NCBI GenBank assembly: GCA_964247135.1
Contig: CAXTTL010000183.1
Coordinates: 1 to 10,000 of the forward strand
Origin: an uncultured Deinococcales bacterium
GTDB lineage: Bacteria; Deinococcota; Deinococci; Deinococcales; JAAFIG01
DNA: 10,000 bases
Reading direction: 5' to 3'
Shown: positions 1 to 9,896 of the stretch, piece after piece
Layout: every line of letters begins with the position of its first letter
Numbering within the stretch: the stretch's first letter is position 1
The notes under the pieces: model-generated
The model's database searches: none
What the model saw: only the letters and a program-made list of their open reading frames with translations
Told to the model about the DNA's origin: nothing
Program-made: the position numbers and the translations under genes

Positions 1-517
1 CAGCCTTTAAGAATTGGTCACGCACCTCGGGTCCCACGGCGTAATGCTTCAAACAAATGCCAGGTCCAATCGCGGCACGGACCTGCTCGAGGTTTGCACC
101 AAGCTCGAGCATCTGTCGCAGGGTGTGATCGAGAATTTTGCCGACCGTCCCGCGCCAACCGCAGTGTGCCGCGCCGATCACACCGTTGACGCGGTCCTCG
201 AGCAATACCGGGTAACAATCGGCGGTTTCGATCACCAAGGCAATACTGGTTTTGGCGCTCACCAGCGCATCACCCTCGAGCACCACGCCTGGAATTGCCT
301 GAACCACCTGACTCGAGTGAATTTGGCTCAGCCTTGCCAGCGATTCTGGCTTCAACCCAAGCCTACTTAAGGCTTGCCCACGATTCTCGAGCACGCGGTC
401 TGGGTCATCACCGACCCGTTCGGAGAGGTTTAAACCGGCAAAATCTCCGGCGCTCGAGCCTCCAGCGCGGGTCGAAAAACCATGATTGCTCTGTAAATTC
501 GGGGCGTGTAACCACAT
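1..517 (-). CDS. pgeF: PgeF/YfiH (LACC1-like) purine nucleoside phosphorylase / peptidoglycan editing factor; 3' end lies beyond the left edge of the window
   Basis: Hand translation from ATG (cat at 515-517): MWLHAPNLQSNHGFSTRAGGSSAGDFAGLNLSERVGDDPDRVLENR...SQIHSS...EGDALVS...VIETADCYPVLL...GAAHCGWRGTVG...AAIGPGICLKHYAVGPEVRDQF. It has the family motifs HGFSTR, QxH, ADC, AHxGWRG and IGPxI..YxVG. The ORF track probably missed it because no stop codon lies in the window. Confidence 0.93.
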   Translation of the reverse strand, partial: MWLHAPNLQSNHGFSTRAGGSSAGDFAGLNLSERVGDDPDRVLENRGQALSRLGLKPESLARLSQIHSSQVVQAIPGVVLEGDALVSAKTSIALVIETADCYPVLLEDRVNGVIGAAHCGWRGTVGKILDHTLRQMLELGANLEQVRAAIGPGICLKHYAVGPEVRDQFLKA

Positions 518-524
518 CGCGCCC

Positions 525-530
525 AGTTTA
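525..530 (-). promoter_or_regulatory. -10 element (TAAACT) 7 nt upstream of the pgeF ATG; probable leaderless promoter
   Basis: Minus strand reads ggggTAAACTgggcgcgATG, with no Shine-Dalgarno. Confidence 0.65.
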
Positions 531-716
531 CCCCAGGACCTGAGGATTTCTGAGTTTGAGGCATCAAGTGACACCCAAAATGGTCTAGAAGAGAATTACC
601 TCGTTCTCGAGGGGCTTTTTTTGAGTTAAAAACCTTGGGTTGCTTGGCGTAAAGGCACTTGGTGAGGGTGATTTGATCAGATAAGCCAAAAAACCACACC
701 AGGCAATGGGATTCTT

Positions 717-725: not shown

Positions 726-864
726 GGATTCTTAATGAAACGTTACTTGCAAGACAATCATCAATTTGCGTTCTTTATGGGCTTTGTGGCTGTTCAAAAG
801 GGGAGGCTAGATCAAATCCGTTTGGGTTTGAAATCCAGCTCGAGTCTGATTTCGGGGGAGCATC

Positions 865-2706
865 ATGGATGAAAACATTACACCGTTAGCCAAGAAGCTG
901 GCGGAAGAAAACTCGATAGATTGGCGTTTTATCAGGGGCACGGGTCCGGCTGGCAAGGTCATCGAACGTGACATCTTGAGTTACTTGGCAAGAATCATGT
1001 CCGGCGAATTGGATTTGCCCGCCATGCCCGACGCTTCAGAGCCGGCGGGTCCTGCGGCAGGTTCCGCCAACATGCCCGACATGGGGCAAGTCGCCAACTT
1101 TGATTTGATGAGCGCCAGCATGGCTAAAGAGGGCGTCGACTTAAATTCGATGCTGGGTGATTTCGCTGCACCCGCCCCAGCTTTGGTACAGACACCGCCA
1201 GTCCCCGAGTACGATTTTTCGATGCCAGTCACCCCGGTCTCGAGCGTCAACGATGATGTCGTGATCTCGAGCCAGGTTGCCGCCGTCTCGATGCCTGAAG
1301 TTGCTGCGCCAAGTCCCAAAGCCCTCGAACCAGACGATACCGTGTTCGAGTTTGACCTTGACGACATTGACGACATTGAACCAGTCTCAACCTTGCACAA
1401 CCCAGACTTGTTCCCCGCCGAAATCGCGGCACCTGTCAACGCCGCGCCAAGCTCGAGCCTGGACGAGGATCACATCATGACCGTCACCGACGACCATGAC
1501 ATGGTTGTACCGTCCGATGAGGTCACCCTCAGCCCAGGGGACGATATTTTGGTGCACGTCAGTGGCGAATTTGAACCTGTGCCCGATCCACTCGAGAATG
1601 TCGCATTCGAGTTGGATGCGCAAAGCCATCATGAACCCGCCCAAACATTGATTGTTGAAGATGCGATTCTTGCGCCCGAACCAGAATTGGTGGTCGACGA
1701 TGTTGCCACCCCCGTCGCGCATCAAGAACCCGCCGGTGTGTCGCTCGAGGGTCTAGCCGCAGTTGGTGCCGGTGTGCTGGGCGTTGGTGCGGCATTGGGA
1801 CATGTTGGACATACGCCAGTTGTCAACGATCTCGAGCTTGATTCCCCAGTGGTGGTCGCGCCAGCCGTCACCCATCTCCAACCCGAACCGCTGGTTGCCC
1901 CAGTCATGAGCGAGCCTGAGATTGCCACAGTCATGACCGAGCCAATGATCGCACATTTTGATCCCGAACCGATTCATGTCCAAGCCGAACCGGTGGTTGC
2001 CCCCGAACCTGAACCGATTCATCCTGAACCTGAAATTGTGGTTGCACCCGAACCAGTTCACGTCCCCGACCCTGTTGTGGTCGCACTCGAGCCTGAAGCC
2101 GTTCATGTCCCAGCACAACCAGAACCAATGCCCGTTGTCATCCCAGCCGCAATTGAACCCCCAATGCATCTGGACGCCTCGAGCCAAAACGTGGCTGTAG
2201 TTGCCCCCAGCTCGAGCGTGCACAAAGATTTTTTCAACACCAACATTTTGCGCCGTCAGTTCAATGCCAGCGCCCTGATGGACATTCGGACGCAAATTTC
2301 CAAAGCGCTGAACGGACGCGAAGTTCAACTTGGGGTCTTTGTCGGACGCGCCGCGCAACGCGGACTGTACCTGCTCGGCACCACCGATGCGGTCACGCTC
2401 AACAAACTCGAGGCGGGACTGGTGCCGCTCAGTACAGCAGGTTTGCATCACAGCTTTATCGAGGCGGTCCAAAGTGTCAACCATGCCGATGCGGGAACGG
2501 CAAACGGTTTGGCGGTGCTCGACGCATCCAGCTTGGGCGTGGACGATCTGGTCTTGCCCGCCAGCGGTGCGCTGCTCGCCTTGGGACAGATCAGCAACAA
2601 CGTGGGAACACTGACCCTATCGGGTGATTTCCCAGCCAAAGCTGGCGCGGAATTCCTGGCACAGGTTGCAGGGGCGCTCGAGACGCCGGTCGGACTGGTG
2701 CTCTAA
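865..2706 (+). CDS. E3-binding (PSBD) domain protein with long acidic Pro-rich linker and degenerate 2-oxoacid dehydrogenase E2-like C-terminal domain (613 aa)
   Basis: N-terminus ITPLAKKLAEENSIDWRFIRGTGPAGKVIERDI matches the peripheral subunit-binding domain pattern. C-terminus LTLSGDFPAKAGAEFLAQVAGALETPVGLVL mirrors the E2 ending (LSLSxDHRxxDGxxxxxFL...LExP..L) but lacks DHR. SD-like GGGGAG precedes the ATG and a terminator follows. Confidence 0.85.
   Translation: MDENITPLAKKLAEENSIDWRFIRGTGPAGKVIERDILSYLARIMSGELDLPAMPDASEPAGPAAGSANMPDMGQVANFDLMSASMAKEGVDLNSMLGDFAAPAPALVQTPPVPEYDFSMPVTPVSSVNDDVVISSQVAAVSMPEVAAPSPKALEPDDTVFEFDLDDIDDIEPVSTLHNPDLFPAEIAAPVNAAPSSSLDEDHIMTVTDDHDMVVPSDEVTLSPGDDILVHVSGEFEPVPDPLENVAFELDAQSHHEPAQTLIVEDAILAPEPELVVDDVATPVAHQEPAGVSLEGLAAVGAGVLGVGAALGHVGHTPVVNDLELDSPVVVAPAVTHLQPEPLVAPVMSEPEIATVMTEPMIAHFDPEPIHVQAEPVVAPEPEPIHPEPEIVVAPEPVHVPDPVVVALEPEAVHVPAQPEPMPVVIPAAIEPPMHLDASSQNVAVVAPSSSVHKDFFNTNILRRQFNASALMDIRTQISKALNGREVQLGVFVGRAAQRGLYLLGTTDAVTLNKLEAGLVPLSTAGLHHSFIEAVQSVNHADAGTANGLAVLDASSLGVDDLVLPASGALLALGQISNNVGTLTLSGDFPAKAGAEFLAQVAGALETPVGLVL
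1880..2165 (+). repeat. Degenerate coding repeats (EPEPIH / PVVAPEP / PEPVHVP units) in the linker
   Basis: Protein: DPEPIHVQAEPVVAPEPEPIHPEPEIVVAPEPVHVPDPVVVALEPEAVHVPAQPEP. DNA gaaccgattcat occurs at 1966 and 2011; gtggttgcmcccgaacc occurs twice. Confidence 0.7.
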
Positions 2707-2724: not shown

Positions 2725-2759
2725 ACGGATGGGTTTCGAGTGAAACCCATCCGTTTTTT
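2725..2759 (+). terminator. Intrinsic (Rho-independent) terminator
   Basis: Perfect 13-bp stem ACGGATGGGTTTC-gagt-GAAACCCATCCGT followed by TTTTT, 18 nt after the stop at 2706. Confidence 0.9.
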
Positions 2760-2920
2760 AAGCCAATTTGCAGCTTGGGCTTTTCATTCGCATTGACTCT
2801 CGTGCTAACCTGTCAAGACTGTGCCGATTGGCACTTGAGCGACCAATACTCTTGCTGTATGTAATAGAACGTATTTTCACGCGCCATGCATGGTCGATTC
2901 AACGAAGGAGGCTTTCACCC

Positions 2921-4135
2921 TTGATTACCGCCAAACCCCAAGATGCCTTTGAAAAGGCACGAAAATTCAACCGAGCCGAGGAGGCTCATGCGGCAGGGTT
3001 GTACCCCTACTTTAAAGCCATTCAACACCATCACGGTGGCAGCGTGATGGTGGACGGCGAAGAATATGTCCTGACTGGCAGCAACGATTACTTGGGTTTA
3101 ACCCAGGACGAACGCATCAAACAGGCGGCTCGAGACGCGGTTGAGACTTACGGCACCAGTTGCACAGGCTCGAGGTTTTTAACCGGCACGCTCGACATTC
3201 ACGAAACCCTGGAGGCTGAACTTGCCGAGTTTTTTGGTAAAGAACAGGTGCTGGTTTTCGCCGCCGGTTTTCTGGCTTGCGCCTCGAGCGTCGCGGCGTT
3301 AACGGGTCGCCACGATTTGATTTACTTTGACCGCGAAAACCATGCCAGCCTTTACGACGGTTTTAAACTGGCGAACGTGCGCAACGAACAACTGCGCCGT
3401 TTTGATCACAACGACGCCAACGATTTTGAACGCCTCTTAAAAGAGGACGAGGGCAAACCAGGCGGGCGAATCGTCTACACCGAGGGCGTGTTCTCGATGA
3501 GCGGGCATATCGGCGTGGTGGACAAGATTGTTGAGGTCGCCAAGCGTTACGGTTGCCGCGTGGTTTGCGACGATGCCCACGCGACTGGGGTTCTTGGACC
3601 GCTCGGGCAGGGTGCCCATTACCATTTCAACATTCAAAATGATGTCGACCTGGTGGTTGGAACCTTCTCGAAGTCTTTTGCCAGCGTGGGCGGTTTTGTC
3701 GCCGGCGAAAAAGAGGTGGTCGAATGGATCAAACACACCGCGCGACCGTTTATTTTTAACGCTGCACTGCCAGGACCCAATGCCGCCGCGACGCTCGAGG
3801 CGTTGCGCATCATGCGCAGCGAACCGGAGCACCGCGAACGCATGTGGAAAAACGTCAACTTTATGCGCGATAACCTTTTGACCCTCGGTTTTGATTTGCT
3901 CGGCTCGGACAGCCCGATCATTCCGGTGCTGGCAGGCGACGATGACACCGCCATTTTATTCTGGAAGGGCTTGTGGGCTGAAAAAATCTTCACCACCCCA
4001 AGTCTGCCGCCAGCCGTTCCCAAAGGGCAGAGCATCATTCGCACCAGTTACAACGGGGCGCACACCCAACCGCAACTCGAGAAAACCTTGCAGGCTTTTG
4101 AAAAAGTTGGACGCGAACTCGGTGTGATTTCTTAA
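2921..4135 (+). CDS. PLP-dependent alpha-oxoamine synthase (BioF/KBL/SPT family), most similar in motifs to bacterial serine palmitoyltransferase (404 aa)
   Basis: Motifs GLYPYF, GSNDYLGL, YGTSCTGSRFLTGT, NHAS, EGVFSM, DDAH, GTFSKS (PLP lysine at 3671-3673) and PPAVP..IIRTS. Start moved from 2768 to TTG at 2921, 9 nt after AGGAGG (2906-2911). Confidence 0.88.
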   Translation: MITAKPQDAFEKARKFNRAEEAHAAGLYPYFKAIQHHHGGSVMVDGEEYVLTGSNDYLGLTQDERIKQAARDAVETYGTSCTGSRFLTGTLDIHETLEAELAEFFGKEQVLVFAAGFLACASSVAALTGRHDLIYFDRENHASLYDGFKLANVRNEQLRRFDHNDANDFERLLKEDEGKPGGRIVYTEGVFSMSGHIGVVDKIVEVAKRYGCRVVCDDAHATGVLGPLGQGAHYHFNIQNDVDLVVGTFSKSFASVGGFVAGEKEVVEWIKHTARPFIFNAALPGPNAAATLEALRIMRSEPEHRERMWKNVNFMRDNLLTLGFDLLGSDSPIIPVLAGDDDTAILFWKGLWAEKIFTTPSLPPAVPKGQSIIRTSYNGAHTQPQLEKTLQAFEKVGRELGVIS

Positions 4136-4199: not shown

Positions 4200-4652
4200 C
4201 TACGGTTTTTGAATCGGAACCCAAATCTCAAAATTTGGATTTTCGTCGCCAAAATCCTGCCCGTAGCGTTCCAAATCTGGTGCGTCCCCTCGAGTGAAAC
4301 CAGAACCAGGCAACCAATTGGCGTAGGCGTGGTTGAAGACTTGCGAAACGTTTTCCAAATTGGCTGGGAACACCGCGTAATCGCAGGCTGGGATTTTCCA
4401 AAGCTGCATCGAAGGCGGTATCTCAAAATCGTTACCGACTGCTTCACCCGCCATGTAATGCAACACGCCACTCGAGCGCTCAAGCTGCATCACGCCGTAA
4501 CTCACGCCTGGTTCGGCTCGGGGTAAATCAGGTTTGGATTGCCCCATAAAACGTTGCCAAAGTGCGCCAACCTCTGGTGATCCTGGCGTGGTGTCGATAG
4601 CCGTGCCAACAACGGCAAAAGCCTTGTTCGAGACAATTTTTGGTGATTCCAT
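4200..4652 (-). CDS. Stand-alone GyrI-like small-molecule-binding domain protein (AraC effector-binding/Cass2-like), 150 aa
   Basis: Pattern P.IV....F.VVG ... LWQRF ... YG ... YMAG..V ... IPA.DYAVF ... WLP.SGF ... DLERY ... EIWVPI; SD AAAGGAG 7 nt before the ATG. Confidence 0.88.
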   Translation of the reverse strand: MESPKIVSNKAFAVVGTAIDTTPGSPEVGALWQRFMGQSKPDLPRAEPGVSYGVMQLERSSGVLHYMAGEAVGNDFEIPPSMQLWKIPACDYAVFPANLENVSQVFNHAYANWLPGSGFTRGDAPDLERYGQDFGDENPNFEIWVPIQKP

Positions 4653-4738: not shown

Positions 4739-4789
4739 ATGACCATGCGCCGCCACGTTTTCGGATTGAATTCCTGGTCAGTCGAGTCT

Positions 4790-5251
4790 TTACCTGTTGC
4801 CAGAAATCCGCTCGAAAATCGTGCTGATGTAATTAAACGTTTCAGTCTCGAGCTTATCGAGTTTGGCTGGAATCTCGAGGTTGGAGGTCGTTACGGCGGA
4901 GAGCGAGAAATAATAATCCCCACGATCCCGTATCGTCCAAACGCTGTGCACCGTGCCAGCGCTGTTGTTTGCCTTGGCGGCGAACACCAAACGGGCGTAA
5001 GAATAGGTGATCAGCGATTCGTTCGCCTGGTATTTCAGGCGCTCGAAGCCCGTCACATTGCTCGAGTTGAGGGCGTCAATCAAAATCACGGCAATCTCTT
5101 GGGTGAACGAACTTGAGCGGTTCTCAAACGACGGTTTGTTGAGCGAGCGGTACAAGACCTCGCCAGGGTTTGGTGTGACCAAATTTGAACTTGGGGCGCA
5201 AGAAAAAAAGATCAAACTGAGCGCTGTCATCAGGATCAAAAACCGTTTCAT
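4790..5251 (-). CDS. Hypothetical lipoprotein, 153 aa
   Basis: MKRFLILMTALSLIFFSC-APSS: basic n-region, hydrophobic h-region and Cys18 in a lipobox-like FFSC. It fills the gap between flanking genes, and TAAACT lies 6 nt upstream of the ATG. Confidence 0.75.
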   Translation of the reverse strand: MKRFLILMTALSLIFFSCAPSSNLVTPNPGEVLYRSLNKPSFENRSSSFTQEIAVILIDALNSSNVTGFERLKYQANESLITYSYARLVFAAKANNSAGTVHSVWTIRDRGDYYFSLSAVTTSNLEIPAKLDKLETETFNYISTIFERISGNR

Positions 5252-6188: not shown

Positions 6189-6303
6189 TCAAAACCTTCT
6201 CGAGACGCGATACTTCACGTTTGATACCAGCAGTTTCGCGGTTCAAGGTTTCCTGATACCTGCCGATTGAGTGGCGCTCAGCCCAAATTTAGATCGCCAG
6301 AAG

Positions 6304-6312
6304 TGATAGTAT
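6304..6312 (+). promoter_or_regulatory. Candidate extended -10 (TGaTAGTAT) for the cox cluster
   Basis: TG-n-TAnnnT 35 nt upstream of the coxG ATG; SD AGGAGGA at 6334-6340. Confidence 0.4.
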
Positions 6313-6347
6313 TTTTGGAGTCAGAACAAAAACAGGAGGAATTCACC

Positions 6348-6797
6348 ATGCTTCTCGAGGGAAGTCATTTCATTCATTTGCCCCCAAATCGCGTTTTTGC
6401 ACTTTTGAACGACCCCGACGTGCTTTCCAGATGCGTGCCAGGCGTCAAAAGTTTGGTCGTTGACGGTACGGATTCTTACAAAGCCCAAGTTGAGGTGGCG
6501 ATTGGTCCTGTCAAGGGCAAATTTGACGGCAAAATTGCCATCACCGAAAAGGTGCAAGACCAAAGCATGACTTTAAAAGTCGAATTTAAATCGCCGGTCG
6601 GCATTGCCAACGCGCTCGGAACACTCAAACTCGAGCCTGAAAATGATGGCACCACCGTTCACTGGGCGGGCGAACCACAGCTCATGGGCATGATCGCCAG
6701 CGTCGGCGCACGGCTTATTGGTGGCGTGGCAAAAGTACAAGCCGATTTGTTTTTCTCCAAACTCGAGCAAGAGGCACAAACCCTTGCCAGCATTTGA
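6348..6797 (+). CDS. coxG: CoxG-like SRPBCC domain protein, 149 aa
   Basis: MLLEGSHFI...VFALLNDPDVLSRCVPG...IGPVKGKFDG...GMIASVGARLIGGVAK.QADLFF is typical of CoxG. Start moved to ATG 6348 after AGGAGGA; directly upstream of coxS/coxL. Confidence 0.9.
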   Translation: MLLEGSHFIHLPPNRVFALLNDPDVLSRCVPGVKSLVVDGTDSYKAQVEVAIGPVKGKFDGKIAITEKVQDQSMTLKVEFKSPVGIANALGTLKLEPENDGTTVHWAGEPQLMGMIASVGARLIGGVAKVQADLFFSKLEQEAQTLASI

Positions 6798-6888
6798 AGG
6801 TCGCAGGAGTGAATCCGCATGAACACAAGTTGAATTTCACCTCGAGCGGCGCAGGTTTTGAATTGTTTATTTTCAAGGAGGCTAGAAC

Positions 6889-7401
6889 ATGGCACAAGTG
6901 GTTGCAGTAACAATGACCGTCAACGGCGTGAAATCCACACACCATCCCGAACCGCGCACGCTCTTGGTGCATTATTTGCGCGAAAAACTGGGTTTGACCG
7001 GCACGCACGTGGGTTGTGACACCAGTCAATGCGGCGCGTGTACCGTCCATGTCGACGGCATGGCGGTGAAATCGTGCACCATGTTTGCGGTGCAAGCCGA
7101 AGGTGCTGTCATCACCACCATCGAAGGCATGGGCGAGGTTGGGCATTTGCACGCCCTGCAAAGCGGTTTCTGGGAAGAGCACGGTCTGCAATGCGGGTTT
7201 TGCACCCCAGGCATGATCATGAGTTCCGCCGATCTGCTGAGTCATAACCCCAACCCGAGCGAGTCTGAGATTCGTCACGCGCTCGAGGGGAATTTTTGCA
7301 GGTGCACGGGTTATCACAACATCGTCAAAGCTGTGCAAAATGCGGCACATAGCATGGCGCAGACGACAGCGCACAACATGGCGCAGGCGGCAGACGATTA
7401 A
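6889..7401 (+). CDS. coxS: Two [2Fe-2S] cluster small subunit of a xanthine-oxidase-family molybdoenzyme (CoxS/CutS), 170 aa
   Basis: [12 protein letters not shown]...[11 protein letters not shown] and CRCTGY cysteine motifs; SD AAGGAGG upstream. Confidence 0.96.
7345..7392 (+). repeat. Degenerate 24-nt tandem duplication at the coxS 3' end (AHSMAQTT / AHNMAQAA)
   Basis: gcacatagcatggcgcagacgaca vs gcgcacaacatggcgcaggcggca, 19/24 identical. Confidence 0.7.
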
Positions 7402-7428
7402 GCCAAAACCTTTTGCGACGACCTCAAA
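7398..7428 (+). repeat. ~30-bp dispersed element, copy 1 (overlaps coxS stop)
   Basis: TTAAGCCAAAACCTTTTGCGACGACCTCAAA; 26/31 aligned identity to 9908-9937. Confidence 0.7.
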
Positions 7429-7529
7429 GCTCAAGATTGATAACAAGTTTGAAATTGAAAAAACCCGAGCTTCAAGTTTTCACCGCTCGAGCACTTTGGT
7501 TTCTCGAGACAGCGTTTAAGGAGAAGTCC

Positions 7530-9896
7530 ATGACCGAAAAATTTTTTGGCAAAGCCGTGAAACGCGTCGAAGACCCGCGTTTTATCACGGGCGCAGGAAA
7601 TTATACCGACGATATTGTGCTCCATAACATGACCTACGCGGCGATGGTGCGCTCGCCCTATGCGCACGCAAAAATCAATTCGATTGACGCCTCGGCGGCT
7701 TTGGCGCTGCCTGGTGTGCTGGCGGTCTTGACGGGCAAAGATTTGGTGGCGGCTGGCATCAACCCGATTCCGCCAGGTTGGTTGCTGCCCGACATCAAAA
7801 TCTCGGCGCACCACGCAATCCAACCCGAAAAGGTCAGCCACGTCGGCAACATTGTGGCTGCCGTGATTGCCGAAACCCGAGCGATTGCCGAGGATGCGGT
7901 CGCATTGGTAGACGTCGATTACGAGATGCTGCCCGCCGTGGCATTGGGCAGTACCGCATTGGCTGAGGGCGCATCGCAAGTGCATGAAAATGCACCTGGC
8001 AACGTGGCGTTCCAATGGGAAATTGGCGATTCCGCCGCCGTGGACGCCGAATTCGCCAAAGCCTTCAAAACCGTCGAAGTCAAACTTCGCAACCACAGGC
8101 TCGTGCCAAACGCCATCGAACCACGCTCGAGCCTGGCGGATTACAAACGCGCCGGCGATGAGTACACGCTCTACACGACCAGCCAAAATCCGCACATTCA
8201 CCGCGTCATGCTGGGCGCGTTTATCATGGGCATCCCAGAGCACAAATTGCGAATTGTTTCGCCCGATGTCGGCGGCGGTTTTGGCAGCAAAATCTTCCAA
8301 TACCCTGAAGAAGTAATTGTGCTGTTTGCCTCCAAAAAAATAAACCGCCCTGTTAAATGGACGGCGACCCGTTCGGAATCGTTCGTTTCCGATGCGCAGG
8401 GACGCGACCACGAGACGGTTGCTCAAATGTGCGTGGACGCCAACCACAAGGTGCTGGCGTTGCGCGTCAAAACCATCGCCAACCTCGGCGCGTTCCTGAC
8501 CACCTTTGCGCCAGCCGTGCCAACGTACTTGTACGGCACACTCATGAACGGCACGTACAAATGGAAAGCCATTCACTGTGCCGTGACTGGCACGTACACC
8601 AACACCGTCGGCGTGGATGCCTACCGTGGCGCGGGACGCCCAGAAGCCACGTATGTGCTCGAGCGCATCATGAGCCGCATGGCGCTCGAGCTTGGTGTTG
8701 ATCCGCTCGAGTTCAGGCGCAAGAATTTTATTCAACCCGACGAATTCCCGTATCAGACTCCAGTTGCGTTGCAATACGACTCTGGCAATTACGAACCCGC
8801 GATGGACAAAGCCATGCAGATGCTCGATTACGCAAAGCTCCGAGCAGAGCAAGCCGAAGGGCGTAAAAACGGCAAATACATCGGCATTGGGGTTTCGACC
8901 TACCTCGAGGCTTGCGGGCTTGCCCCAAGCGCCCTGGTGGGCAGCCTGGGCGCTCAGGCGGGGCAATGGGAGTCGGCACTCGTTCGGGTCAGCGCCACGG
9001 GCAAGGTCGAGGTCTTGACGGGTTCGCACAGCCACGGGCAAGGTCACGAAACCGCGTTCGCGCAGGTGGTTGCCGACGAACTGCAAATTCCAATGGAAGA
9101 CGTCAGCATCGTTCACGGCGACACCGCAAGACTGCCGCACGGTTGGGGGTCTTACGGCTCGAGAAGCGCCCCCGTGGGCTTGAGCGCGATCAAAATGGCA
9201 TCGGACAAGATCAACGACAAAGCCAAGAAAATTGCCGCGCACCTGCTCGAGGCGAGCGTGGACGACATCGTTCACGAGGACGGCAAATTCCAAGTCAAGG
9301 GCGTGCCCGAAAAATCCAAATCCTTCTTCGACGTGGCACTCATGGCGCACCTGGCGCACAATTACCCAGCCGACCTCGAGCCAGGACTGGAAGCCACGCA
9401 TTTTTACGACCCGAAAAACTTCGTCTATCCGTTCGGTACGCACCTTGCCGTGGTTGAAGTGGATGCCAACACCGGACACGTTCAGCTCATTCGTTACGTC
9501 TGCGTCGATGACTGCGGTCCGATTATCAACCCACTCATCGTCGAGGGGCAAGTTCACGGCGGCGTCGCCCAAGGCATGGGACAGGCACTCCTCGAGAACA
9601 CCGTTTACGACGACAACGGACAACTGACCAGCGGCTCGTACCTCGAGTACACCATGCCGCGAGCCGACAACATGGTTCAACTCGAGATAGGTCATACCGT
9701 CACGCCCAGCCCGCACAACCCGCTCGGCTTGAAGGGCATCGGCGAGGCAGGCACGATCTCGAGCACTGCCGCGATTGCCAATGCCGTGATCGACGCGCTC
9801 GAGCCGTTTGGCGTGAAACACCTCGATATGCCCTACACCGCCGAGAAGGTCTGGCGGGCGATCAGCTCGAGCCTGCCACAAGCCGCAAACGACTAG
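7530..9896 (+). CDS. coxL: Molybdopterin-binding large subunit, xanthine dehydrogenase family; form II CoxL/CutL-like (788 aa)
   Basis: KRVEDPRFITGAG.Y.DD, RSPYAHA, VGGGFGSK, AYRGAGRPEA (AYRGAGR at 8619-8639), HGQGHET, GSRS, EGQVHGG..QG.G, KGIGEAG. Start moved to ATG 7530 after AAGGAG. Confidence 0.95.
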   Translation: MTEKFFGKAVKRVEDPRFITGAGNYTDDIVLHNMTYAAMVRSPYAHAKINSIDASAALALPGVLAVLTGKDLVAAGINPIPPGWLLPDIKISAHHAIQPEKVSHVGNIVAAVIAETRAIAEDAVALVDVDYEMLPAVALGSTALAEGASQVHENAPGNVAFQWEIGDSAAVDAEFAKAFKTVEVKLRNHRLVPNAIEPRSSLADYKRAGDEYTLYTTSQNPHIHRVMLGAFIMGIPEHKLRIVSPDVGGGFGSKIFQYPEEVIVLFASKKINRPVKWTATRSESFVSDAQGRDHETVAQMCVDANHKVLALRVKTIANLGAFLTTFAPAVPTYLYGTLMNGTYKWKAIHCAVTGTYTNTVGVDAYRGAGRPEATYVLERIMSRMALELGVDPLEFRRKNFIQPDEFPYQTPVALQYDSGNYEPAMDKAMQMLDYAKLRAEQAEGRKNGKYIGIGVSTYLEACGLAPSALVGSLGAQAGQWESALVRVSATGKVEVLTGSHSHGQGHETAFAQVVADELQIPMEDVSIVHGDTARLPHGWGSYGSRSAPVGLSAIKMASDKINDKAKKIAAHLLEASVDDIVHEDGKFQVKGVPEKSKSFFDVALMAHLAHNYPADLEPGLEATHFYDPKNFVYPFGTHLAVVEVDANTGHVQLIRYVCVDDCGPIINPLIVEGQVHGGVAQGMGQALLENTVYDDNGQLTSGSYLEYTMPRADNMVQLEIGHTVTPSPHNPLGLKGIGEAGTISSTAAIANAVIDALEPFGVKHLDMPYTAEKVWRAISSSLPQAAND

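Follow-up and report, generated by a model that had tools for sequence, protein, structure and literature searches.

A 10,000-nucleotide stretch of DNA from an uncultured Deinococcales bacterium (hereafter the window) encodes, at positions 865 to 2,706, a 613-residue protein that, judged from its sequence and predicted fold, is a paralogue of the dihydrolipoamide acyltransferase (E2) of 2-oxoacid dehydrogenase complexes, with a trimmed, catalytically dead core and no lipoyl domain. Ahead of the core stand a specialised peripheral subunit-binding domain (PSBD) and a long acidic linker, and the core itself is predicted to form an E2-like homotrimer. Related proteins occur across the phylum Deinococcota and appear to be under strong purifying selection. 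Bacterial 2-oxoacid dehydrogenase complexes are usually described as consisting of E1, E2 and E3 only. As to function, we lean, at somewhat less than an even chance, towards a free-standing multivalent adaptor for E3 or E1 that resembles the eukaryotic E3-binding protein (E3BP) in its logic. The window lies on contig C183 of an assembly of 5.09 Mb in 386 contigs that is 84% complete. The parts of the protein are as follows.

865-2706, forward strand: coding sequence of the putative lipoyl-less, catalytically dead E2 paralogue, 613 aa; ATG start, the sole long frame that fits here
877-1008, forward strand: specialised PSBD (aa 5-48), assigned by Pfam E3_binding, AlphaFold2 (AF2), Foldseek and residue counts
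1108-1155, forward strand: motif B (aa 82-97, MSASMAKEGVDLNSML), from alignment A2, with the consensus A(K/R)EGVDL; present also in a 336-aa protein of a g9 genome
1156-2229, forward strand: disordered acidic linker (aa 98-455), assigned by composition, low model confidence (pLDDT) beyond aa 100 and widely varying length
1333-1380, forward strand: motif C (aa 157-172, DDTVFEFDLDDIDDIE), acidic-hydrophobic, within the linker; consensus DDAxFELDLDD in alignment A2, FELDD in A4
2230-2703, forward strand: trimmed, putatively dead E2 core (aa 456-613), assigned by AF2, Foldseek, VIA-align (VIA) and hhalign
2245-2262, forward strand: first beta-strand, ILRRQF, with R463 (Arg in 82/83 sequences) and R464 (Arg in 69/83); predicted contact with D560
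2533-2559, forward strand: LGVDDLVLP, with D560 (80/83) and D/E561 (83/83); predicted trimer interface
2611-2655, forward strand: remnant of the E2 active-site motif, LTLSGD---FPAKAGAEF against LSLSFDHRLVDGAEAARF of the host's true E2; HRL deleted, G587 invariant
2677-2703, forward strand: C-terminal LETPVGLVL, equivalent to the LExPxxLLL end of E2

A trimmed E2 core that has lost its active site

To place the C-terminal domain, we modelled its roughly 158 residues with AF2 on alignment A1, which holds 83 sequences: the C-terminal piece of the window protein and 82 family proteins. The model had a pLDDT of 93.9. When it was compared by VIA with 48,161 chains, the best 15 matches were E2 cores, human E3BP and the E2-like domain of OdhA (Z 14.2-18.1, root-mean-square deviation (rmsd) 2.2-3.5 Å, 152-162 residues aligned, 13-20% identity to E2). 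Other folds resembling chloramphenicol acetyltransferase (CAT) scored lower, with Z 12.2 for CAT itself and at most 10.5 for condensation domains of non-ribosomal peptide synthetases. The top Foldseek matches were likewise all E2 cores (E 3.5e-10 to 6.7e-7, TMq 0.64-0.75). Profile alignment with hhalign matched the core to 30 true E2 cores of the same phylum over 148 columns (80% probability, E 1.4e-5), and a profile of the full-length family gave weak collinear matches to mammalian E2 in the PDB, with E3BP (6h60_A) at E 3.9e-4. On the strength of the model, the domain has the E2/CAT fold over its whole length.

The core is shorter than that of E2 at the front and in the middle. Its model aligns to the E2 core from residue 28 on (8eqn_A 28-233), so that the N-terminal arm and helix H1 of E2 appear to be missing, and about 50 internal E2-core residues are also absent by both hhalign and VIA. 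The C-terminal end is retained, with L605 and P608 present in 83/83 sequences and L611 in 82/83; in E2, this LExPxxLLL end is the inter-trimer 'knob'.

Several residues of the active site are gone. The DH pair of the former DHR motif is found in none of the 83 sequences, a His stands at the Asp position in 2/83, and at the site of the catalytic Ser/Thr an Asp aligns with the Thr of the true E2 sequence SVTNMG (hhalign). The catalytic domain of the window protein is not recognised by PF00198 above the gathering score. A Pfam scan of the 83 A1 sequences (E ≤0.01) matched three families in total, including E3_binding in 69 sequences and PF00198 in one (E 0.0028), and Biotin_lipoyl was not one of the three. 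Nor was there a Biotin_lipoyl match in the window protein, whose PSBD already begins at residue 5. A preliminary description, made from the letters of the DNA, had listed an N-terminal PSBD, a missing lipoyl domain, a missing catalytic His and a C-terminal stretch of about 160 residues that ends like an E2 core. All four features are borne out, the last with a likeness that extends to the entire domain.

A distinct subtype of PSBD

We next examined the N-terminal domain. Pfam E3_binding (PF02817) matches aa 5-38 at E 4.4e-10, with 40 bits against a cut-off of 23.7. An AF2 model of aa 1-175 was confident only for aa 1-50 (block-mean pLDDT 87-97), and in a Foldseek search the best 25 matches shown (ranks 1-27) were all solved PSBDs. 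These had TMt of 0.55-0.87, rmsd mostly of 0.8-1.8 Å and a probability of at least 0.99 in all but one, with every E-value above 0.001. The profile of the full-length family pointed the same way: nearly all PDB matches at E ≤0.001 were to E2 PSBDs, with mammalian E2p in first place (1.1e-8), and a PSBD-bearing alpha/beta-hydrolase, 7qjm_A, matched at 6.7e-4. The domain consists of two helices, the second extended to a conserved M45-S-G47-E, and its signature residues are K10, E14, W20, E34, D36, L38 and L41.

Residues were counted in 77 family PSBDs and, for comparison, in the PSBDs of 30 true E2s of the phylum.

Position 10: true E2, Arg 30; dead-E2 family, Lys 63, Arg 13
Position 14: true E2, Arg 30; dead-E2 family, Glu 75, Asp 2
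Position 31: true E2, Arg 30; dead-E2 family, Arg 31, Lys 6, other 40
Position 34: true E2, Val/Met/Ile/Ala; dead-E2 family, Glu 75
Position 38 (+2 after the universal Asp36): true E2, Lys/Arg 28 and Leu 1 of 30; dead-E2 family, Leu 75/77
Position 41 (+5): true E2, Leu 8/30; dead-E2 family, Leu 77/77
Position 45: true E2, not conserved; dead-E2 family, Met 75/77
Position 47 (ends helix 2): true E2, Gly 0/30; dead-E2 family, Gly 76/77

By these counts the family PSBD is a distinct subtype. The three positions of the Arg triad are, we assume, the basic 'zipper' residues of the Geobacillus PSBD. According to a review (PMC6270654), basic residues around PSBD helix 1 form the proposed binding site. 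The loss of the triad was considered as evidence against binding of E1 or E3, and this argument is weakened by mammalian E2p PSBDs, which also lack Arg at the second position (Ser in pig E2p) and are the best PDB matches of the full-length family profile.

The second helix carries a different signal. According to a paper on fungal E3BP (PMC10156792), what sets eukaryotic E3BP PSBDs apart from those of E2 is a Leu at +2 that is exposed to solvent, together with hydrophobicity at +5 and a conserved Gly that terminates helix 2, at +11 in animals. The same paper describes an Arg next to the loop Gly as universally kept in E2 and E3BP PSBDs alike. Set beside that account, the family PSBD has all three helix-2 traits of the E3BP type, and the Arg beside the loop Gly is present in only half of the family. 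The residue two after Gly47 is Ile, Leu or Val in just 9/77 family PSBDs. With three E3BP traits present and the loop-Gly Arg kept in only half, the PSBD makes what these comparisons suggest is a mixed case for E3 or E1 as the client.

An acidic linker with two short motifs

Between PSBD and core lies a linker of about 360 residues with 16% Val, 15% Pro and 12% Ala (composition of aa 97-455), and the protein as a whole holds 92 Asp+Glu against 19 Lys+Arg. Orthologous frames range from about 360 to 765 aa, with a protein of 336 aa in a g9 genome. Motif B, just ahead of the linker, is modelled by AF2 as helices at 79-88 and 93-96 (pLDDT 66-72) and looks like half a PSBD, that is, helix 1 and the loop. 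Motif C is a candidate short linear binding motif.

A predicted homotrimer with a private interface

Structure prediction assembles the core into an E2-like homotrimer. Three copies modelled together on alignment A3, a profile of 21 core domains, gave ipSAE values of 0.90, 0.91 and 0.90, as against 0.00 for each of three unrelated-protein controls. At least 85% of contacts were common to the prediction runs, and partner pLDDT was at least 89. In calibration, 20 of 30 proteins whose solved structure pairs two copies of one chain attained the ipSAE mark, as did 1 of 23 solved as single chains; the trimer run differs from that calibration in its custom alignment and its three copies. Since E2 trimers are already among the solved structures, the score may partly reflect likeness to, or memory of, these structures.

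The predicted interface is made by the first beta-strand (ILRRQF) and the final helix on one side and, on the next subunit, by the region around LGVDDLVLP; the contacts of lowest predicted error join R463 and R464 to D560 of the neighbouring subunit. No charged positions of the family are better conserved than R463, R464, D560 and D/E561. At the aligned positions, true E2 has Asp (for R464) and Phe-Pro (for D560) by hhalign; the Arg/Asp contact thus appears private to the dead-E2 family and would presumably be lost from trimers that include true E2 subunits. The preliminary description had proposed modelling the C-terminal domain as monomer and trimer against the CAT/E2 fold: the monomer is predicted to have the E2/CAT fold, and the trimer prediction scores 0.90 against 0.00 for controls.

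A conserved, single-copy family under purifying selection

To determine how widely the protein occurs, the core domain was searched against 1.84 billion proteins. The search yielded 123 clusters at 50% identity, and in every match listed the alignment reached the last residue or two. With profile A3, the core was detected in 324 of 364 Deinococcota genomes, including 239 of the 263 of high quality, in nearly all cases as a single copy, and the matches listed were all free of internal stops. Identical proteins are recorded under the names of Thermus thermophilus (336 aa), Meiothermus taiwanensis and Deinococcus species. As had been anticipated, the database name is generic: the family records read 'E3 binding domain-containing protein', with one record at NCBI labelled [Deinococcales bacterium].

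The ratio of non-synonymous to synonymous substitution rates (dN/dS) was low in four of four congeneric pairs, at 0.02-0.04 for aa 1-100, 0.06-0.08 for the core and 0.19-0.26 for the linker, and the linker held 17-36 gapped codons in the same pairs. Pseudogene-like decay in orthologues, which the preliminary description had named as counting against its proposal, was looked for and not seen (dN/dS 0.02-0.08 on both end domains; 324/364 genomes). By these measures the family is not a relic and is under strong purifying selection. In one Thermus-type genome (G212, L068:758-1914) the orthologue is split into overlapping frames, 758-1522 and 1432-1914, which is either a frameshift or an assembly error.

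Gene neighbourhoods were compared across loci. In f1, the window's own family of genomes, PgeF stands beside the gene in 9/9 loci; Deinococcus-type loci have a Glu/Leu/Phe/Val-type dehydrogenase (four loci) and a uridine kinase as neighbours, and Thermus-type loci have UvrB or an M29 peptidase. Genomic context was rejected as a clue to function, the neighbours being conserved only within families. The dehydrogenase lies divergently adjacent to the gene at L050:4975-6081 (reverse strand), with clustered homologues in L051, L061 and L062; if it is a leucine dehydrogenase, it would connect the gene, weakly, with branched-chain 2-oxoacid metabolism. Genomes that carry the dead E2 have between 1 and 4 true E2 genes. 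Most f1 genomes have one PF00198 (E2) gene; among genomes of the other families searched, the majority carry three.

Natural variants

Two departures from the common architecture were found. In genus g6 the core is absent by profile A3 from 3/3 genomes. The two g6 genomes scanned (G019 and G261) each have an extra PSBD match in a frame of about 265 aa, and the G019 protein (L075:1446-2237, reverse strand, 263 aa) combines a PSBD of the family type with an acidic linker and, at its C-terminus, a coiled coil, the last marked by many weak coiled-coil Pfam matches such as HOOK (2.1e-5). This coiled-coil tail (L075, L077, L078) occurs in 3/3 g6 genomes; the remaining 361 genomes searched do not have it. 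By these sequence comparisons, genus g6 has swapped the dead core for a coiled coil.

The second departure is a paralogue without a PSBD. Some f1 genomes contain a second core match (G004:C142, G007:C9, G009:C66, G010:C417, G013:C57), and five PSBD-less proteins of a representative library (alignment A5: P0025, P0027, P0033, P0037, P0038) have the same core, including the RR and D-E signature, behind an N-terminus with a conserved acidic motif of about 40 aa (LE.DL.D.LDPD.FES...IDE.G.FL.WL). The A5 proteins are presumed to be the paralogue behind the second core matches. In the window's own genome, at 84% completeness, the paralogue was not detected. Together with the private interface, the g6 coiled coil and the PSBD-less paralogue suggest that selection on the C-terminus is for self-association and not for E2 chemistry or docking.

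A putative adaptor and its alternatives

How might such a protein work? In the reading we favour, an E2 gene would have been duplicated early in Deinococcota, and the resulting pseudo-E2 would have lost its lipoyl domain and its acyltransferase active site while keeping both protein-protein modules in altered form. The trimmed core would assemble into an E2-like homotrimer held by the contact of R463 and R464 with D560. From this hub three long acidic disordered arms would extend, each with a specialised PSBD at its tip followed by the two short motifs. The most likely clients would be the PSBD-binding enzymes of 2-oxoacid dehydrogenase complexes, E3 (lipoamide dehydrogenase, Lpd) or E1, and the adaptor would collect or retain them next to the true E2 core in the manner of E3BP, without being built in. 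A more elaborate proposal, which we regard as doubtful, is that Deinococcota arrived independently at an E3BP-like protein by reducing an E2 to its two interaction modules. Unlike every E3BP known, it would be a free-standing homotrimeric hub, perhaps within a higher assembly, whose tethers of about 350 residues hold E3 or E1 while the FELDLDD-type motif may dock on the basic PSBDs of true E2, so that a shared enzyme pool or supercomplex is organised around 1-4 E2 cores.

Several observations weigh against the adaptor. The homology of the core to E2 rests largely on predicted structure: Pfam gave no match to aa 456-613 even at E 10, the core-only profile (A3) retrieved no E2 from PDB sequences (its single match was a haemoglobin, E 0.96) and BLASTP of the core against the host genome's own E2 was not significant (best match spanning the motif, E 3.8), so that the case is made by the predicted fold together with the profile alignment. 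The PSBD departs from the Arg triad kept in 30/30 true E2 PSBDs of the phylum. Where position 31 is non-basic it holds Gln, Met, Ser or Thr, including in the Deinococcus-type sequences shown; the Arg beside the loop Gly is missing there in about half of the family, and the family sequences read, which were not counted, show no Arg on the other side of that Gly. The gene adjoins E1, E2 or E3 genes in none of the 21 loci examined. Because true E2 PSBDs already bind E3 in Thermus (PDB 2eq7, 2eq8, 2eq9), an extra E3 binder is not required. Complexes also appear to work without the dead E2 protein, since genus g22 has no detectable core copy (0/3 genomes) yet three E2 genes; three PSBD matches were found in each of 2/3 g22 genomes scanned.

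Some of these points would follow naturally if the protein were an exapted hub, with trimer and tethers unchanged, whose altered, less basic PSBD and acidic motifs bind a client, probably basic-surfaced, outside the 2-oxoacid dehydrogenase complexes, the family having left 2-oxoacid metabolism altogether. We think this rather unlikely, if worth serious attention. It would account for the charge reversal at an Arg invariant in true E2 (Glu/Asp in 77/77), for Glu34 in place of Val/Met/Ile and for the loss of the third Arg in 40/77, as well as for the acidity of the protein. The lack of linkage to 2-oxoacid dehydrogenase genes at 21 loci, the variable count of true E2 genes among carrier genomes (1 to 4), and the appearance of the core's replacement by a coiled coil in g6 and of its fusion to another N-terminus in the paralogue also fit. 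Yet the domain is still a well-scoring PSBD whose PDB matches at E ≤0.001 are nearly all E2 PSBDs, and nearly all characterised PSBDs known to us bind E1 or E3. It also carries the traits that PMC10156792 reports as E3BP-type.

The remaining alternatives keep the clients and change the role, or deny one. A decoy or regulator, a free trimer that would rival the PSBDs of true E2 in binding E3 or E1 and thereby set the load of peripheral enzymes on the cores, draws on the same structural evidence as the adaptor and on the protein's being free-standing and not part of a core; the gene's own Shine-Dalgarno-like site and terminator would make separate expression possible. Sequence does not distinguish it from the adaptor, and a constitutive structural role is at least as compatible with a single copy conserved throughout the phylum at very low dN/dS, which leaves the decoy improbable in our judgement. 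We hold it very unlikely that the protein is a true E3BP-type core subunit, its dead core inserted within E2 trimers or docked as trimers in the E2 cube or dodecahedron. The E2-like fold, the retained LExPxxL terminus (L605 and P608, 83/83) and the match to human E3BP (Z 16.9) are what such a subunit would show; the N-terminal arm, H1 and some 50 further residues are missing, however, identity to E2 is just 13-20%, the predicted R464/D560 pair corresponds to Asp and Phe-Pro in true E2 and would be lost from mixed trimers, and in g6 a coiled coil occupies the place of the core. The last two points also weaken the version of the preliminary description in which the protein is built into the E2 core. 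Least probable of all, and close to dismissible, is an acyltransferase that uses other residues, or a decaying relic. The His at the former DHR Asp position in 2/83 sequences could hint at residual catalysis and the frameshifted copy in one Thermus-type genome at decay, but the catalytic His is deleted, the Ser/Thr replaced and the lipoyl arm absent, PF00198 matches 1/83 (E 0.0028), the matches listed contain no internal stops, and dN/dS is 0.02-0.08 on both end domains.

Comparison with known systems

The adaptor reading invites comparison with E3BP, to which the preliminary description had already likened the protein. The likeness stands in so far as a dead E2 paralogue bears a PSBD; it fails at the lipoyl domain. 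The PSBD of the window protein differs from all 30 true E2 PSBDs examined in the phylum. In its logic the protein is a bacterial counterpart of E3BP, most likely outside the eukaryotic family of that name. Mammalian E3BP (E3BP/protein X, PDHX) has a full-length core and substitutes for E2 units within the 60-mer. Like it, the window protein is an E2 paralogue with a PSBD and an inactive core (6h60_A: Z 16.9, rmsd 2.2 Å, 152 residues aligned). Unlike it, the window protein has no lipoyl domain, a core shorter by about 50-75 residues, a 360-aa acidic linker, a private predicted trimer interface and a bacterial host. The Leu at +2, the hydrophobic residue at +5 and the terminal Gly of its PSBD helix 2 are shared with E3BP as described in PMC10156792. 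That paper assigns to E3BP the domain topology of E2, lipoyl domain included, and argues that E3BP is a eukaryotic gene. Since the family belongs to a bacterial phylum, all taxa labelled being Deinococcota, it most likely arose independently of eukaryotic E3BP.

Fungal E3BP (PX) carries a lipoyl domain. Like the window protein, it is a PSBD-bearing E2 descendant with a reduced core remnant that trimerises, a property that is predicted here and, for PX, described in PMC10156792. That paper places the fungal domain within the E2 core, bound to it, whereas the window protein would be free-standing.

The host's true E2 (contig C2; L003:703-2199, 498 aa) is built on the same plan, a PSBD followed by a CAT-like core that ends in LExPxxL, and the two are collinear over 148 columns. 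A lipoyl domain, the Arg triad of the PSBD, the DHRLVDG motif and a full core of 230 aa (PF00198, 1.3e-86) are found in the true E2 only. Actinobacterial E2 variants, the trimer-only E2p AceF and the E2o-like domain in OdhA, likewise depart from the cubic or dodecahedral paradigm. The E2-type domain of OdhA has neither a lipoyl domain nor a PSBD (8p5t_A, VIA Z 14.2). The entry 6zzl_A scores Z 16.4. The AceF and OdhA domains are catalytically active, and the core of the window protein lacks the catalytic His. A PSBD on a non-E2 body is found also in the alpha/beta-hydrolase 7qjm_A, where the body is an enzyme; in the window protein it would be a dead oligomerisation domain. We found no paper on a bacterial member of the family in a literature search that left supplementary proteomic and Tn-seq tables outside its reach.

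Taken as they stand, the data point to a fourth, E2-derived, non-catalytic component kept across one whole phylum (239/263 high-quality genomes). Should it bind E3 or E1, it would be a case of convergent evolution of an E3BP-type adaptor and a minimal system for asking why adaptors evolve; should its client be another, a PSBD and an E2 core would have been put to a new use. In both cases a pseudo-enzyme family lies behind the label 'E3 binding domain-containing protein'. If the elaborate hub proposal were true, the g6 coiled-coil swap would show that selection keeps multivalency and not the E2 fold. With identical proteins recorded under Thermus thermophilus and Deinococcus names, the family is tractable for pull-downs, knockouts and cryo-electron microscopy (cryo-EM).

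The gene, its genome and its neighbours

By its signals, the E2 paralogue gene is a solitary transcription unit.

854-860, forward strand: Shine-Dalgarno-like GGGGGAG, 4 nt before the ATG, read from the sequence
2725-2760, forward strand: intrinsic terminator, a 13-bp stem (7 GC pairs; stem at 2725-2754) with a 4-nt loop, followed by TTTTTT

The preliminary description had credited the gene with its own terminator and with no E1 or E3 genes nearby, and both statements were correct. No E1, E2 or E3 gene of a 2-oxoacid dehydrogenase complex is among the genes of the window. The host genome has a single E1-alpha/E1-beta/E2 cluster, on contig C2, and Lpd on contig C8; in a genome-wide PF00198 search, only the C2 gene matched.

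Upstream, a PgeF/YfiH homologue (2-574, reverse strand) diverges from the PSBD gene, and downstream lies an alpha-oxoamine synthase gene (2768-4135, forward strand), whose best match is to serine palmitoyltransferase (NF047600, 4.3e-124, under its cut-off). The TTG start listed for the latter, at 2768, stands 8 nt past the T-run of the terminator, and family models match from residue 62 or later. The true start probably lies downstream of this TTG; the ATG at 2944-2946 is one candidate.

Further along, positions 6267-9896 (forward strand) hold a CoxG-like gene followed by the [2Fe-2S] small subunit and the molybdopterin large subunit of an enzyme of the CO-dehydrogenase/xanthine-dehydrogenase family. 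The molybdopterin enzyme matches TIGR02416 at 2e-221, under its cut-off, and no FAD-binding medium subunit occurs within the window. An open frame of 816 aa (7431-9881, reverse strand) on the strand opposite the molybdopterin subunit gene is most likely no gene but an artefact of codon bias in the sense gene. A 125-aa ORF at 4739-5116 (forward strand), without a Pfam or NCBIfam match, adjoins a divergent GyrI-like gene (4200-4652, reverse strand).

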